From Eledone cirrhosa (Eukaryota), in NCBI GenBank assembly GCA_964016885.1, contig OZ024746.1, positions 57,412,001 to 57,476,000 on the forward strand: a DNA stretch of 64,000 nt. Reading direction: 5' to 3'. Positions 1,147-60,692 of the stretch are shown here, piece by piece. Within the stretch, counting starts at the first letter, position 1, and each line of letters starts with the position of its first letter. The notes beneath the pieces were generated by a model. That model worked only from the letters and a program-made list of their open reading frames with translations. It was not told the DNA's origin and searched no databases. The position numbers and the translations under genes were made by a program.

Positions 1147-1147
<1 letters not shown>

Positions 1148-1341
1148 ACGAAGGAAATGTGGTAAGGAACCAGGGGGACCATAACGCACCAAAGTACTCA
1201 ATACTTAGAGTAGTAGAGTGGGTAATAGGAACAAGTAGGACCCCGACGGCTGAGCTCAAGCCGTTTCGACGGCTAATTCCGGTCCAGAATTAGCCGTCGA
1301 AACGGCTTGAGCTCAGCCGTCGGGGTCCTAATCGTTCCTAT
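1147..1341 (-). mobile_element. Short fold-back of the same family as 35369-36046, with the hammerhead core deleted
   Basis: Arms ~1225-1280 and ~1287-1341. Each keeps GAAAC-GGCUUGAGCUCAGCC-GUC-GGGG. The ~80-bp left extension is shared with 35369-35446. Confidence 0.8.
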
Positions 1342-7353: not shown

Positions 7354-7421
<68 letters not shown>

Positions 7422-7426
<5 letters not shown>

Positions 7427-8466
7427 TATGAAGAGAGAAGAAACATTTAGATATAATTAGTAATCAGATGTATCATACCTAAACTGCTTCTATATTCCTC
7501 GACTACGTAGTTTCGTTGCATAATCAAAAACAATATATCACAGAGATATAGAGCTTTTGTGAGGTCTGCCGACTTGTCAAGAGGATACCTCATTTTACTA
7601 GCTTCAAAGAACACGTCTATAAGATATGGGATAGAATCCCAAAAGGCGGAGGGGGAGTCAATCACGTGATACAACGGTCAAGAAACAGAGCTAAGCCCCT
7701 TATGTACTTTTAGCTCTGATACTGGTTCAGTCTAATCTATTAAGATTGGTTTGTCCCAGTTATTCATAGAGCAACATCGGTTAAGGTTGGCACCATTAAC
7801 TCAAGGATGGATGTGGATATATTCATGTATATGTATGTGTCCGCATGTATCTGTGTGTTTCTCAATATATTGTTTATAATTCACCCTGGTCGAGTAATCC
7901 TTGAAGTGTAGTGACTGCTGAAAGCTGCCATTACTCATACTTCTTGCCTCCTTAACCACCTCTTCTACGGCCTCGATATAAATACCCCCTCCGCCTCCGT
8001 GGTATTTTTTCAGGTTTATAAGGGGCTTAGCTCTGTTTCTTGACCGTTGTATCACGTGATTGACTCTCCCTCCGCCTTTTGGGATTCTATATCACAGCTA
8101 ATAGACGTGTTCTTTGAAGCTAGTAAAATGAGGTATCCTCTTGACAAGTCGGCAGACCTCACAAAGGCTCTATATCTCTATGATGTATTGTTTTTGATTA
8201 TGCCACGAAACTACGTAGTCGAGGAATCCAGAAGCAGTTTAGGTATGATACATCTTATTACTAATTATATCTAAATGTTTCTTCTCTCTACATAATGTAC
8301 TTTTAGCTCTGATACTGGTTCAGTCTAATCCATTCGGATTGGTTTGTCCCAGTTATTCATAGAGCAACATCGGTTAAGGTTGGCACCATTAACTCAAGGA
8401 TGGATGTGGATACATTCATGTATATGTATGGGTCCGCATGTATCTGTGTGTTTCTCAATATATTGT
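7422..8466 (+). mobile_element. Non-coding module with inverted and direct repeats (A'-B-C-A-B) and hammerheads
   Basis: 7422-7703 is the reverse complement of 8018-8299. 7702-7873 is repeated directly at 8295-8466. (TA)n flanks both ends. Confidence 0.85.
8136..8225 (+). ncRNA. Type I hammerhead with U3-A8 variant core
   Basis: UCCUC-UUGACAA-GU(c)GGCA...UGCCAC-GAAAC-UACGUA-GUC^-GAGGA. The mirror copy at 7496-7585 (-) has the same core. Confidence 0.8.
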
Positions 8467-33566: not shown

Positions 33567-33648
33567 CCTTTACCGCACTGTTTCAAATCCCAAAATAAAC
33601 GGATAATTGAAGCGGACATCCATTGAGAAGGGGACTCTCTTCAGAAGG
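33567..33648 (-). ncRNA. Type I hammerhead ribozyme, canonical core
   Basis: CCUU-CUGAAGA-GAGUCCC...GGGAUUU-GAAAC-agugcg-GUA^-AAGG. Confidence 0.75.
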
Positions 33649-34022: not shown

Positions 34023-34093
34023 TATTTTATTATGCGCATTTCAAAAACAAATATCATCATGCAATAACATTTGTGTTTTCATCAGATAAAATA
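34023..34093 (-). ncRNA. Type I hammerhead ribozyme, canonical core, AUA site
   Basis: UAUUUUAU-CUGAUGA-aaacacaaauguua...ugauauuuguuuuu-GAAAU-GCGC-AUA^-AUAAAAUA, with an 8-bp perfect stem I. A damaged copy lies at 13062-13124 (-). Confidence 0.8.
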
Positions 34094-35315: not shown

Positions 35316-35368
<53 letters not shown>

Positions 35369-35369
<1 letters not shown>

Positions 35370-36046
35370 CGAAGGAAATGTGGTAAGGAACCAGGTGGAC
35401 CATAACGCACCAAAGTACTCAATACTTGAGGTAGTAGAGTGGGTAATAGGAACCAGTAAGACCCCGACAGCTGAGCTCAAGCCGTTTCGACGGCTAATTC
35501 TGGACTAAATGAAAATTTATCCTGGTATTTAAATAGCCGATCTTCTCAAGGGGTAATTCCATTTATTTATTTATTCTAGCCTAACAATAGCTAGAGACCT
35601 AGGTCGTAGAATTTAATTTACTTTACTTTTTTCTTTACACTCATTTGTTTTTCTTTACACTTATTTGCTTTTCTTCACTCTCAGTATTTTTTCTTTCCTA
35701 TATATGTCTACCCCCCATTGTTCTACCTACCGTTCCGACTTCCTCCCCCTCCCCCTCCCCTGTATCTTCTTTGACCTCATGCCCAGCTGTAGCTGGCACT
35801 ACAAACGCTTGATTGGGTCTACTCCACCCCCTCCCCTCTTTCTCCTACTGGCAGGTTTAGCCACCATCTCCCCTACTAATTTGCAACCACAGAATTACTA
35901 CTGATTTTTGACAATCACTTTGACCATATATGGAATTACCCCTTGAGAAGATCGGCTATTTAAATACCAGGATAAATTTTCATTTAGTCCAGAATTAGCC
36001 GTCGAAACGGCTTGAGCTCAGCTGTCGGGGTCTTACTGGTTCCTAT
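35369..36046 (-). mobile_element. Fold-back PLE-type module with identical ~117-bp inverted arms
   Basis: 35446-35562 is the reverse complement of 35930-36046, with a non-coding spacer and (TA)n flanks. Fragments of the same family lie at 1147, ~16152, ~33391, ~43995 and ~60572. Confidence 0.88.
35938..36031 (+). ncRNA. Type I hammerhead with U3-A8 variant core
   Basis: ACCCC-UUGAGAA-GA(u)CGGCUA...UAGCCGUC-GAAAC-GGCUUGAGCUCAGCU-GUC^-GGGGU. An identical mirror lies at 35461-35554 (-). Confidence 0.8.
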
Positions 36047-36098
36047 ATATATATATAGATAGATAGATATGTATGGATATGTTTATATGTATAGACAT

Positions 36099-36200
<102 letters not shown>

Positions 36201-51755: not shown

Positions 51756-53520
51756 TATTCAATAGTTAAGCAAAACAAGACCACAAATTTCACAAGGAAG
51801 ACATTATTAAAGTGGATTGGCAGTATCGGTAGAGGGTCTGACGCTATGCTTTGCAGCAAAGAGTTACGCCTCTTTATGGTTTGAGTTCAAATCCCGCCGA
51901 GGTTAACTTTGCCTTTCATCCTTACGGGGTCGATAAAATAAAGTACCAGTAATGCACTGGATAATTGCTGGCCTTGTGCCAAAAGTAGAAACAATTATTA
52001 AAAGATTGTCAACATATTTATTTTCACGTGAGGAATGTATAGAATAATAATAATATTATTAATAATAATAATGTCCGTTTACAATTGTTTCGCTACTCCA
52101 TATAATATTTCAGGATCAAATGACTATATATCATTATTGATCTGGTTCAGTTGAAAATAATTAACATATTTAAAGACAGAGCAGCTCATCGGAACTTCAA
52201 AGGAATATAAATTAAAATAAGGAGAGAATGTTACATAATGTAATGTTCCATATATTGGTATTTCACTCTGGTGTCCTTGGTGTATCAATTGTCAGCCATA
52301 ATCAAGCAGTATTCATCTGTCGAGGCTGCATTGTGTGAGATCTCCCTCTGGGTAACAAGATGGCCGCCAATGGACATATTTACCTTACTAATTAGAGAGT
52401 GGTTTCAGGGCAAGTAACTCCTCGAGAGATTAGAAATGGTGCGTAGTTTATAGTTAAGTGCAAATTTGTTTATTTTTTTAATTGAGCGACAATGTAGGCG
52501 ACTTATAATTATGTAAGTTAGTTATAGCTATTTAACTTATTAGCTACAAGTAAAAATGGGGCTAGGTGACTATGTTGGGTCAAATATTCTGTTGGCGAAG
52601 GAATTAGCCCTTCGCTGTTGCCAGATAATAGTTACCTCCGTTCTATCGTTAATCGGTAGAGGTCGTGATAGAGTTATGTAATATGCTTCGGTAATACAGA
52701 GATCACAAGATTTTCTTCGTCCATTGAAAGGTTGGGCCCTAGCTAAGATATCCCATGTTAGTGAGTGTTCAATGTTGGTTAATTTAAGGTTTTTAATGAG
52801 CCTAGCTAGAGATGTCGAACATCTGTTGTTAGGGTCTCGGAAGGAAAAGAGTGCGCGTTATAGCGTACCTTAAAAGGTTAGACCCAATATAGGAGCTGGT
52901 ATTCGAAGCAGTTTTAACCGTGCACGTATAGACTATGTTGGGTGTCAGGCAGTGTCCATTTAGTCGGCATGCATTAGGGTAACGGCAGTTGCAGTTGCTT
53001 CTGCGGTTAGTGAGAGTAGGGTAGTTTAACCTAAGCGGTTGGTCATTGTTAGAAGGATTAGATGGGGGAGGTGTGCTACTAGAGTAAGTATTGGGGTAGT
53101 GGCGTGGTGTTATTTGATAGGGGTGGTGGTACCGCGGTGTGGGAGTTATACTGTCTTAGTTTATGATGGTTACTGAATGCGATGTGGCTTGCTAGGTTAG
53201 GTGTTGTGGAGAATGAGACTTTAATGTTATTTTTATTAAAGAGTTTGTAATATCTATGGTTGGGGGGGGGGTAGATAGGATAGAGAAAAAGCGTTTAGTG
53301 ATGTTAGTGGCTAGATTAAATGAGAATGAGGGGGTTAAACCAGGTGATATTTCTAGGTCTATCCCTTCTAGGGGTATTTGTGGAGTTGGTAGGGGCTTTC
53401 CTAGGGTTATTATTACCTGCGAATTTGTTATTTGTCATCCTATTTCTCATTCCTGTTCTAGGGTTGATTTTTAGTTCGCTACTTGGAGCGGGGAGCAGGC
53501 CGCTCCCACCATTAAAGTTC
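51756..53520 (-). mobile_element. Degenerate PLE 3' part: RT/EN linker, Cys-rich segment, GIY-YIG and pseudo-LTR
   Basis: Minus-strand fragments ATNITKRFFSIL, YYKLFNKNNIKVSFSTTPNL, CNCRYPNACRLNGHCLTPNIVYTCTV...SYIG and SLTWDILARAQPFNGRRKSCDLCITEAYYI. The pLTR spans 51756-52358, and an inverted partial pLTR lies at ~53730-53851. Confidence 0.85.
51812..51997 (+). mobile_element. SINE family A inserted in a pLTR
   Basis: Consensus match, with ATTATTAAA duplicated. Confidence 0.9.
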
Positions 53521-58127: not shown

Positions 58128-60575
58128 GTGGCGATGAATTAGTTTTGCGAGGTTTTTTATATGAAATCGTGTGTCGAAACAAATATTGTTGTATTTGGGG
58201 AGGGTCGTATTTGTGTAATATTGCCAGAATTAATAACAGAACACACTCACTGTTTGGTTGGTTTTCGCTTCTCGCTGTCTTTTATATCTGTAATCTAACT
58301 TACTCGGTCCTCAATGTTGCCATTGACTGACCGACGGTCAAAAATAATACAGATACAATATAGACACAAACGCATATATATAGTTTATCATAAATCTTTC
58401 GTTGCACATCTGCAACATCGTCAGTGGTGTTATATTTTCCTCCTGTTGTGTTGTATGTCTACGCCATTTTTTATTCAGTCTGTCTATATATTTATTTATT
58501 TATTTGCGTGTTTGTTTATTTTGTCTTCTTTGCGCATGCATTTGCGTGTGTGTATAGTGTTATGTTTGCTGTGTGATGGGTGACTAGTGTGTGTTTATGT
58601 GCTTGTTGTTATTGTGCTTGTGTATGTATTTATTTATCTTATTTTATTTACTTATTTATACTTCTCTTAGGTCAGTGCTGTTTGTTTGGGTGTTGTTGTT
58701 ATTCCATTCATTCTTTCTGTTTAGCTTTGGTCTTCTAATTTCTATTTCACTGGCCTCTCTGATTTGCTTATCTGCTGGGTCATTTCTATGTTTAGATATT
58801 GTTCTAATTTCTATGTTGTCTATGTTACCGTCATGTTGTTGTCTAGCATGTTCGTATAGTACTGACCCGTTTTTTCGTCCTTTTAGTTTCCCCCAGTGTT
58901 GGTCTATCCTTTCACCTATGCTACGAGCTGTCTCACCTATGTATGTTGTTATTATGTTTCTAAAAGTACCCTCTGTACATCTTATGCTTTAGACTACGTT
59001 TCTAGTTTTACAGTTTATCCGGGGGTTCACCTTACATATGATACATTTTCTATTGGTACAGTGGGTTTTCTTAAAAGGGTAGGTTTTGCTGATCAGGGAT
59101 TTTATGGTGGTTCCTGGCTTTTATACCACCTTTATTTTTAAGTGGGTCTTTCTCAGGGCCTTTCTACACTGGTTAGCTAATTTCCCTCCAGGGGCGGCGT
59201 CCAGAAACATGACACTATGGTATCTCTGGTTGTCGTACCATGATGTGGCTTTCCCTATCTTATGCCTAGCACTATCTACGCTATTCCATGATTTTCTCCT
59301 GTATAATGGGCAAATTCCATCCATGTCCAGTTCTATGAGGGTATTATACCTTTCCATGGCTCCTTCGTATACTCTGACTCTGTCTCTTTGGTTGTAGCCA
59401 GAGAACTGCATGCGGTTGATGAAGTGTTGGATGTGTCTTTCCATTTCTGTTGGGTCGCACATGCTGAACACATTCTTCATCACTCGTACCAAATCTGCGA
59501 TCAGAATATTAAACTTAGCACTACTGGACATTGCTGAGTTTTTGAGTATCAGGTATTAGGAGGCCATGGGTTTAGCATAGTGTGAGTGGAGAATTTGGGC
59601 TCTCTCGTCTATAGTGTTAATCCAGAGTTCTGTGTCTAATACAGGTAGTCTATTGTTAGGGTGTTTGGAAGGGAAGTCGATAGTTACAGTTATACTCTGG
59701 TGTATGGAAATAGCTATCTGCTGGATGCTTTCCATCGTGCTACGTTCTAAATCAAACTTGTTAGTGCTCTTTAGTGGGGGTGTTCTTATAACTATATTGA
59801 TATCGTCTACATAACGAGAGTACATGATGAGGTCTATGGAGCTTTAATTAAGGAGATCTTTAAGTCTCCTTTCCCACCATACCATGAAAAGTTTGGCAAC
59901 ATCACCAGCTATGCAGACGCCGATGGCTGCTCCCTCATTTTGGGTGTAGATTTTCTCATTGAACTTAAATATGTGGCCCTTTAGGGTAGTTTTGATACTA
60001 GCCCCTATTGCATGTGCGACCATTTTTCTTATCTGATCATTGTTTTGGGGGTCTGTATAGCTTTGGTCCACCCAATCCACCTTCCCATGTGGGTCTGTTT
60101 TGCCATTGAGGTTATGGAGGGGGGGGGGGTCTACCTCTTATAGGTCTACTAGGGCAGAAACATCTAAGGTCATGGCTGTCTAGTTAGTCAGTGTCGTAGG
60201 TAAGTCTAAGTAGGAGGCCCAGTTTGTCTGTGTCGACGTCGCAGAACTCCACCTCACGCTCAATGATCATCTTCACACATATTTTCACAACAAAATCAAT
60301 GTTAATGGATGGGTACAGTGACACCACATCCATGCTGCCTATTATGCAGTTGGATAGGCTCCTGTTTTTGTTGCACTCACTGATTCTGCTGAGGAAGTCC
60401 TCTGTACTGTCACATACATCTGGGGACATCGTGATTATGGGGCGTATAACCATTGAGAGGAAGTAAGAGATCCTGTAGTTGCTAGCTATATTAGTTCCGC
60501 ATACGGGTCTTGTTGGTGGTCCTGTTTTCGGGTCGTCGACTGTTTTGTGGTCTTTGCGGAGCCCATAGTAATAGG
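58128..60575 (-). mobile_element. Penelope-like element (RT + GIY-YIG), same family as 44637-46610, longer 5' extent
   Basis: YYYGLRKDHK, TRPVC, IIGSMDVVSLYPSI, YTQNEGAAIG, YSRYVDD and YIGET in broken ORFs. The terminal repeat runs down to 58128. An oppositely oriented terminal copy lies at 60975-61147. Confidence 0.93.
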
Positions 60576-60692
60576 AAAATGTTTACCACCGACGGCAGAG
60601 CTCAAGCCGTTTCGACGACTATTTCCGGACACTGGAGTCCAGAAATAGCCGTCGAAACGGCTTGAGCTCTGCCGTCGGGATCAAGCATTTTT
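60572..60692. mobile_element. Short fold-back of the GGCTTGAGCTC family at the PLE 5' junction
   Basis: CCGACGGCAGAGCTCAAGCCGTTTCGACGACTATTTC pairs with GAAATAGCCGTCGAAACGGCTTGAGCTCTGCCGTCGG. Confidence 0.8.

Follow-up and report, generated by a model that had tools for sequence, protein, structure and literature searches.

Penelope-like elements (PLEs) of the Hydra clade have a single ORF with RT followed by GIY-YIG and carry an RWK-type motif, DKT, CxCX5C, CxxC and CxH. They insert into (TA)n, have a hammerhead near the 3' end and leave an inverted, 5'-truncated copy with a one-sided tail (accessible text of Craig et al. 2021, PMC8557442). According to the same text most members are shorter than 3 kb, their tails measure 30-40 bp and the hammerheads listed in its File S2 all have a C3-G8 core together with a short stem III and a short loop II. 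C3-G8 is a tertiary Watson-Crick pair in hammerheads (PMC3884650, in part). PLE hammerheads with U3-A8 cores were published in 2014, about 1,300 of them in Schistosoma (Cervera and de la Pena, PMC4209133, accessible part). Those of the Cercyon PLEs from Schistosoma mansoni are type I motifs with U3-A8 covariation that occur in pairs on opposite strands, 100-700 bp apart, and they are described there as minimal, with almost no stem III, dimer-dependent and weak in vitro. For Poseidon PAc from Anolis carolinensis the sections available to us report two fixed 3' ends that define a tail downstream of the hammerhead, in vitro starts of RT at two internal sites with a spacing equal to the tail, uncut RNA as main template, AT-rich targets and in vitro insertion unaffected by HHR mutants (Frangieh et al. 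2024, PMC11167929). The PAc hammerhead overlaps the ORF start and, according to these sections, no RNA-seq reads start or end at the cut. Fold-back structure and tails of such elements are already known (PMC3846280, in part). Type I hammerheads are also typical of animal non-LTR retrozymes, the cleavage of which was seen in vivo as monomer and circular RNAs and for which a PLE origin was proposed (PMC7229834; bioRxiv 10.64898/2026.07.22.740005; both in part). In the accessible part of the consulted literature self-cleavage of PLE hammerheads in vivo is described as unshown. A literature search, mostly in freely accessible papers, yielded no report of genomic 5' ends at the hammerhead site of a PLE and none of PLE fold-backs cut off in loop II. 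Lunse et al. 2017 reportedly treat hammerhead variants of PLEs and the Terminon paper is said to link hammerheads to element ends at telomeres; both may bear on novelty.

Here, we describe a fold-back insertion in a window of 64,000 nucleotides (64 kb) from Eledone cirrhosa (contig OZ024746.1, 57,412,001 to 57,476,000). The insertion is 679 bp long, with (TA)n on both sides and with arms placed head to head (Table 1). Its exact inverted repeat comprises 117 nt (35446-35562 versus 35930-36046; a further comparison gave 121 nt with 99% identity). Positions within the element are counted from the predicted cut, with C17 as 0 (36026 on the plus and 35466 on the minus strand) and the next base as +1. 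The window copy is a non-coding, 5'-truncated fold-back fragment of the 3' end of a Hydra-clade PLE with (TA)n as target, and it was presumably made from uncut RNA. A search of the animal's own genome with 486 nt gave 1,341 candidates, of which 40 were scored, all being 99-100% identical. Together with the identical arms this supports a recent insertion, as the first-pass annotation had proposed from the arms. The same annotation considered this the most repeated hammerhead family of the window, which holds for half-ribozymes (the 3' half occurs in nine arms) but not for the whole core, present only in the two arms at 35368-36046.

Table 1. Positions of the insertion, its ribozymes and related copies (window coordinates; element numbering with C17 = 0)
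Position	Strand	Feature
35318..35367		(TA)n target, left flank
35368..35562	-	Left arm, element 3' end from -96 to +98 including the tail
35368..35445	-	Tail of 78 nt, delimited by the fixed 3' ends (+20, +98), where RT likely starts internally
35461..35554	-	Hammerhead identical to that on the plus strand, predicted cut 35466/35465
35561..36046	+	Right arm, element 3' UTR from -465 to +20, 2 nt shared between both arms where they join
35938..36031	+	Complete type I hammerhead with U3-A8 core, predicted cut 36026/36027
35943..35949	+	Core box UUGAGAA (U3, A8)
35982..35992	+	Loop II from -44 to -34, start of most genomic family copies, candidate transcription start
36007..36025	+	Stem III, self-complementary, 19 nt; cis hairpin or 18-bp dimer duplex
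36047..36194		(TA)n target, right flank
1147..1341		Mini fold-back (older subfamily), each arm beginning in loop II, ribozyme 3' half only
60568..60682		Second mini fold-back of the 35368-36046 family, more decayed, ends approximate

The source of this fragment can be recognized in longer genomic copies, which have one ORF upstream of the window-type 3' sequence. Intact ORFs of 717-719 aa are found at two loci (L131 and L133), the tandem unit measures 3,542-3,543 bp with the ATG at +190 in tandem copies, and the 3' UTR has about 1.1-1.2 kb. The RT/EN partner that was expected to emerge from extension of long copies is thus identified by its RT and GIY-YIG motifs. The protein shows RWR, DKT, YRDD, CxCX5C, GIY-YIG, CxxC before a conserved E and CxH after a conserved N. 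A single ORF with RT and C-terminal GIY-YIG is the arrangement of EN+ PLEs, and tandem or partial-tandem pLTRs, an inverted 5'-truncated copy and a one-sided tail are likewise PLE features. In motif comparison with the accessible text of Craig et al. 2021 (PMC8557442) the protein agrees with the Hydra clade, with RWR here and an RWK-type motif there, and the insertion in (TA)n agrees with the target of this clade. Its descriptive traits are not all shared, since the core is U3-A8 instead of C3-G8, the unit of about 3.54 kb exceeds the usual length of under 3 kb and the tail has 78 nt instead of 30-40 bp; canonical core and length, however, stand outside the protein definition of the clade. Judged from its protein motifs, the source element is a young and very abundant Hydra-clade PLE. 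A Pfam scan of three ORF pieces returned 0 families, and 2,164 protein relatives were recognized among 8,000 scored candidates, the best 120 with 39-53% identity. Assignment to Naiad/Chlamys (N-terminal EN, without canonical hammerhead) was rejected because EN is C-terminal here and a hammerhead is present. A non-LTR retrozyme was rejected as well, since the tandem unit of 3.54 kb is coding and the short copies are fold-backs: unlike those tandem repeats, this is an autonomous family with short head-to-head fold-back derivatives that contain half a ribozyme. In contigs of three sequencing runs over the pLTR-ORF junction the family is present and both 3' ends recur, RNA starts and levels not being readable there.

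At one place of the genome (L132:6770-9900 and L324:1-441; G000:C1 about 91.49 Mb) about 64 head-to-tail repeats of a 55-nt piece from within the ORF open a five-unit tandem array of the element, directly before the inverted arm. Slippage of RT or an expansion at a later time is a possible origin. Remnants of a related RT/EN ORF, decayed and 35-44% identical to the protein of this family, are found in the window at 52612-53396 (minus strand), and several other Hydra-like families (about 35-53% protein identity) have copies no more than a few kb away from these insertions. Many Hydra-clade lineages reside in this genome.

Both arms contain the identical hammerhead with stems, core and triplet as originally annotated. 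Three helices, the core boxes, G10.1-C11.1, A15.1-U16.1, the strand ends in stem I and the GUC triplet are those of a type I hammerhead, with U3-A8 in place of C3-G8. The minimum-energy fold of the 94-nt monomer is the active hammerhead fold (-22.7 kcal/mol, pair probabilities of the core helices 0.47-0.97), its folding energy being ordinary if compared with shuffled sequences (z = -0.52). Stem III had been thought to fold in cis as well as to dimerise, and the predicted energies (-4.9 kcal/mol for the hairpin, -26.3 kcal/mol for the two-copy duplex) agree with both; but since the two arms lie on opposite strands they cannot form the dimer with each other, and a read-through transcript of the locus is predicted to give a 117-bp hairpin. 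Type I architecture, U3-A8 covariation and paired opposite orientation are shared with Cercyon, whereas the present ribozyme differs from the minimal Cercyon motifs (PMC4209133, accessible part) in having a 6-bp stem III in cis, the option of an 18-bp dimer, a bulge in stem II and about 37-45 nt in loop II. An Rfam scan (E <= 1) gave no hammerhead model among the 150 of 213 matches listed, which were microsatellite-driven miRNA noise only; the U3-A8 core and the long loop II may be the reason for this miss.

Support for the motif not being a product of chance comes from its copy number and from the concentration of subfamily variation in loop II, N7 and the downstream sequence. Exact 5' halves occur 2,197 times and exact 3' halves 10,389 times in the genome, reversed-pattern controls giving 0. 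In an alignment of 23 arms (5' strands set by the search pattern, one row truncated) variants shared by at least two insertions were counted per column. They affect 17/39 columns in loop II and 12/29 downstream, compared with 2/18 in stem II, 1/10 in stem I, 5/19 in stem III and 2/11 in the core, and N7 is a further position that varies between subfamilies.

Conservation of the core among the copies, which had been presumed, is true only for the window's own subfamily, with U3-A8 in 100/100 (the first 100 of 2,197 genome copies). A looser pattern detects 5,892 complete 5' halves, and a hand count of the first 100 cores comprises 74 U3-A8, 23 C3·A8, 2 U3·G8, 1 G3 and 0 C3-G8, while each of the four letters occurs at N7. 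In a set of 78 related metagenome loci (partly redundant) a descriptor search found 59 C3-G8 hammerheads and 1 with U3-A8, the control with reversed sequences giving 0; in the printed matches the stem III region has at most 10 nt versus 19 in this family. U3-A8 thus appears rare in the Hydra clade (1/60 hammerhead-bearing relatives), and the idea that it is common in this lineage applies to the genome but not to the clade. The variant core is present as written in the first-pass annotation, but it had already been published for PLEs (PMC4209133, in part). Alone it is not new; what is new for the Hydra clade is its occurrence together with a long stem III and a long loop II. The sole U3-A8 hammerhead of the 60 metagenome loci (L387, about 1937) has a short stem III and loop II and is probably a separate switch. 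An older insertion of the genome (L228, G000:C1:5772330-5772580) shows a U3·G8 wobble core in both arms, a possible intermediate between C3-G8 and U3-A8.

Further ribozymes and fold-backs are found in the same window. A second U3-A8 family (7420-8460; loci L111-L130) has a non-coding unit of about 593 nt, and occurs as partial tandems and fold-backs in (TA)n. Its stem III is a perfect palindrome of 10 nt, its loop II is long and its N7 is mostly U (C in the window copy); the family looks like a retrozyme or mini-PLE. The two families had been called unrelated, and at the DNA level there is indeed no blastn match, but both have a bulge in stem II, a long loop II and 5 bp in stem I, so that they need not have arisen independently. 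Candidates for canonical C3-G8 type I hammerheads lie at 728-793, about 930-1000, 34023-34093 and 33567-33648, the first two forming an inverted pair that adjoins (TA)n. At 466-640 there is a fold-back insertion of a different family; its arms measure about 50-60 nt, its tail terminates at (TA)n and no hammerhead was seen in it.

The 3' ends of the arms are fixed. Arms end at +20 or +98 and there adjoin (TA)n; the +20 end was found in 58 inverted partner arms of a survey of tail-anchored arms, and among short fold-backs the combination +20/+98 occurs in 32/49, 9 more being halted at +36 merely by subfamily mismatches. Two fixed ends that define a tail downstream of the hammerhead are also the situation in PAc, and by analogy with this anole element (PMC11167929, in part) +20 and +98 may represent two internal RT start sites here too. 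Uncut RNA as main template and AT-rich targets are further likenesses to PAc. PAc, with its hammerhead overlapping the beginning of the ORF, differs from the present family, whose ATG is found 190 nt further downstream in tandem copies and whose genomic copies begin at the cut.

These copies are the main evidence for activity of the ribozyme. Genome-wide, 183 fold-back junctions lie within a few nt of the predicted cut (one duplicate match at C1:88.8 Mb excluded; control 0), and the first 49 distinct loci were scored. In the 30 junctions without overlap 44/60 arms start at +1, 4 at 0 and 2 at -1, while past the cut there are 3 at +2, 5 at +3 and 2 at +4. Against an assumed flat 1/8 over 8 positions this corresponds to p = 3e-27, arms within one locus not being independent; counted by hand per locus, at least one arm starts at +1 in 27/30 (p = 2e-14). 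Of the 49 junctions 12 are blunt and fit +1/+1 or 0/0 with a 2-nt overlap, and in 17 the two arms, each starting at +1, are separated by untemplated or unrelated letters. Inserts and flanks vary between the +1 junctions, and just 4/98 arms extend to -1 or beyond, though the search pattern permitted such arms; the search covers arms from +4 upstream, so trimming past +4 is invisible to it. The simplest reading of these ends would be run-off of RT on RNA cut after C17. Read from DNA copies, the +1 pile is therefore likely a footprint of in vivo self-cleavage that affects a minor fraction of the element's RNA, and both the predicted self-cleavage 3' of C17 and the cut after 36026 proposed in the first annotation gain indirect support from the genomic copies.

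Other conceivable sources of the +1 pile are a minor transcription start at +1, cutting by a protein nuclease, stopping of RT at stem I or a preference for joining at the G run, C17/G+1 being a pyrimidine-purine step, the blunt junctions being palindromes and a few arms carrying an extra G. We regard such origins as rather improbable, since joining by overlap does not account for the 17 loci with letters between +1 arms, the far longer palindrome of stem III draws few ends (4/101 arms, -13 to -10) and the edge falls on exactly the bond predicted by the ribozyme model. A point in their favour is that the edge is kept in a second tail type, which shows C3·A8 in 6/8 linkable complete copies. It has 104 junctions near the cut, and a hand count of the 50 listed gives 24 with both arms at +1 or blunt, 11/100 listed arms starting at -1 or beyond; nine loci of this type were inspected individually. 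Its junction rate relative to tail arms is 104/9,154 (1.1%) versus 183/8,075 (2.3%; p = 8e-9), so that this mixed type, the short copies of which lack the core, still yields +1 junctions at about half the rate. This would not be expected from a fully dead core, unless U3-A8 members or trans partners supply them.

One near unit-length copy (L323) begins at 0/+1, includes the ORF and extends as far as +98 of the following unit, with the 3' ribozyme uncut. It has an internal deletion of 158 nt, which was considered as an intron and rejected because it is a microhomology deletion. For the second U3-A8 family of the window one junction near its cut site was found (copy number uncounted), with ends at +2/-3 and not +1/+1, and the cleavage footprint thus gives no sign of generality. 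In four junctions (L178, L266, L280, L310) short copies of sequence from near the junction, inverted or repeated, lie between the arms, which suggests repeated template switching during the joining of two cDNAs.

Most copies, however, do not begin at the cut but within loop II. Exact counts are level upstream (2,197 for -88 to -68 and 2,167 for -63 to -43) and leap downstream to 10,389 for the 31-mer from -26 to +5, which is specific for the young subfamily, and to 37,288 for -34 to -14, older subfamilies included. The 5' starts of 101 tail-anchored arms (97 loci, drawn from the first 100 places on contig C1) are located at -44 to -34 in 60 cases, at -33 to 0 in 21 and beyond -100 in 13. Seven arms scored +1, but two of them (L090, L176) were dropped as artefacts, since an additional G or mismatched letters had led to this score. 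Loop II starts are found in 21/30 arms of the older tail type, one indel artefact (L261) having been moved. Within 58 fold-back junctions 114/116 arms start at -45 to -34 and none at -33 to -31; these junctions comprise 33 different end pairs, which means that the loop II starts are separate events. An arm reaching from -37 into the ORF (L322) indicates a template that began at -37 and continued into the coding region.

The same diversity speaks against short fold-backs as a MITE-like family from one or a few master copies, in which the piles would reflect founders and not RNA ends. Such an origin would fit tens of thousands of near-identical short palindromic inserts and the recurrence of some junctions (12 blunt, 9 with single-letter inserts). 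Besides the 33 end pairs, the inserts at +1 are varied and both piles recur in subfamilies with different diagnostic letters; we thus consider the MITE-like reading already largely refuted, with hardly any probability left to it.

There is, in our estimate, an even chance that the pile at -34 to -44, as read from DNA copies, marks the transcription start of the element. The 3' part of loop II, which contains the initiator-like word TYAGT, is kept across subfamilies while its 5' part is variable. This conserved word, the weakness of the loop II hairpin (-3.2 kcal/mol, with loop II pairs contributing only about -3 kcal/mol), which seems insufficient to stop RT, and the transcription of tandem PLEs from the upstream pLTR (review PMC6765202; PMC2377424; both in part) are the reasons for considering a start at this site. 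With a chance that falls slightly short of even, the pile could instead result from a nuclease nick trimmed to stem II or to a protein footprint, or from a stall of RT at the loop II hairpin, because the sharp downstream edge at -34 abuts extended stem II and the 3' strand of the hairpin spans -44 to -36. A TATA-like word 29 nt upstream of the pile is not conserved in older subfamilies, for which reason it was dropped as support for a transcription start, and in the 58 junctions the start letters are not purine-specific and give no clear extra-G cap signal. A stall, on the other hand, is hard to reconcile with so weak a hairpin when even the stronger stems I-III rarely stop RT (21/101 arms over 34 nt), and the kept initiator-like word and the upstream pLTR start of tandem elements also speak for a transcription start rather than for a nick or stall.

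With a probability of about 0.75 we consider the insertion as a fold-back of a Hydra-clade PLE in (TA)n, the U3-A8 hammerhead of which likely cuts a minor part of the RNAs after C17 in vivo. The RT/EN protein would nick (TA)n and reverse transcription would start at internal sites of the RNA, on one strand from +20 and on the other from +98, as observed for the anole element in vitro. Each cDNA would extend to the end of the RNA or to a stop of synthesis, and the two cDNAs would be joined head to head. Long copies such as the window insertion would then derive from uncut RNA, arms beginning at +1 from ribozyme-cut RNA, and the mini fold-backs of about 200 bp, the majority of insertions, from RNA beginning in loop II. 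The ribozyme seems dispensable for spreading because most templates are uncut and the C3·A8 subfamily has multiplied. The hammerhead could even be a decayed and inactive relic, kept since its DNA overlaps with promoter and RT start signals. C3·A8 in 23/100 cores, the missing 5' half in about four fifths of young arms and in vitro insertion of the anole element without effect of HHR mutants (PMC11167929, in part) would fit a relic, but the stems hold while N7 and loop II vary freely and the footprint at +1 exists, and so we judge a relic to be highly improbable. A transcription start within the ribozyme would provide the mRNA with a 5' end containing half a hammerhead that is unable to cut itself off. 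It is conceivable, though doubtful, that in an asymmetric dimer a complete 3' hammerhead pairs via the palindromic stem III with this 5' half-ribozyme and cuts it; the product would be a unit-length RNA from +1 with the 3' ribozyme and RT start sites intact, as in L323.

For the biology of these elements this means that the predicted bond can be read from integrated copies to the exact nucleotide, and this for a non-canonical core. As a rough share, about 5 of 100 arms begin at +1 and 60 in loop II while 13 are long. Counting of junctions is applicable to any genome with a young PLE family, and the present family supplies natural core variants (U3-A8, C3·A8, U3·G8) together with intact ORFs for direct tests. 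If the loop II start and the asymmetric dimer prove true, fold-backs by tens of thousands would represent a fossil map of RNA start and cut sites, and such a map could be used in any Penelope-like family.
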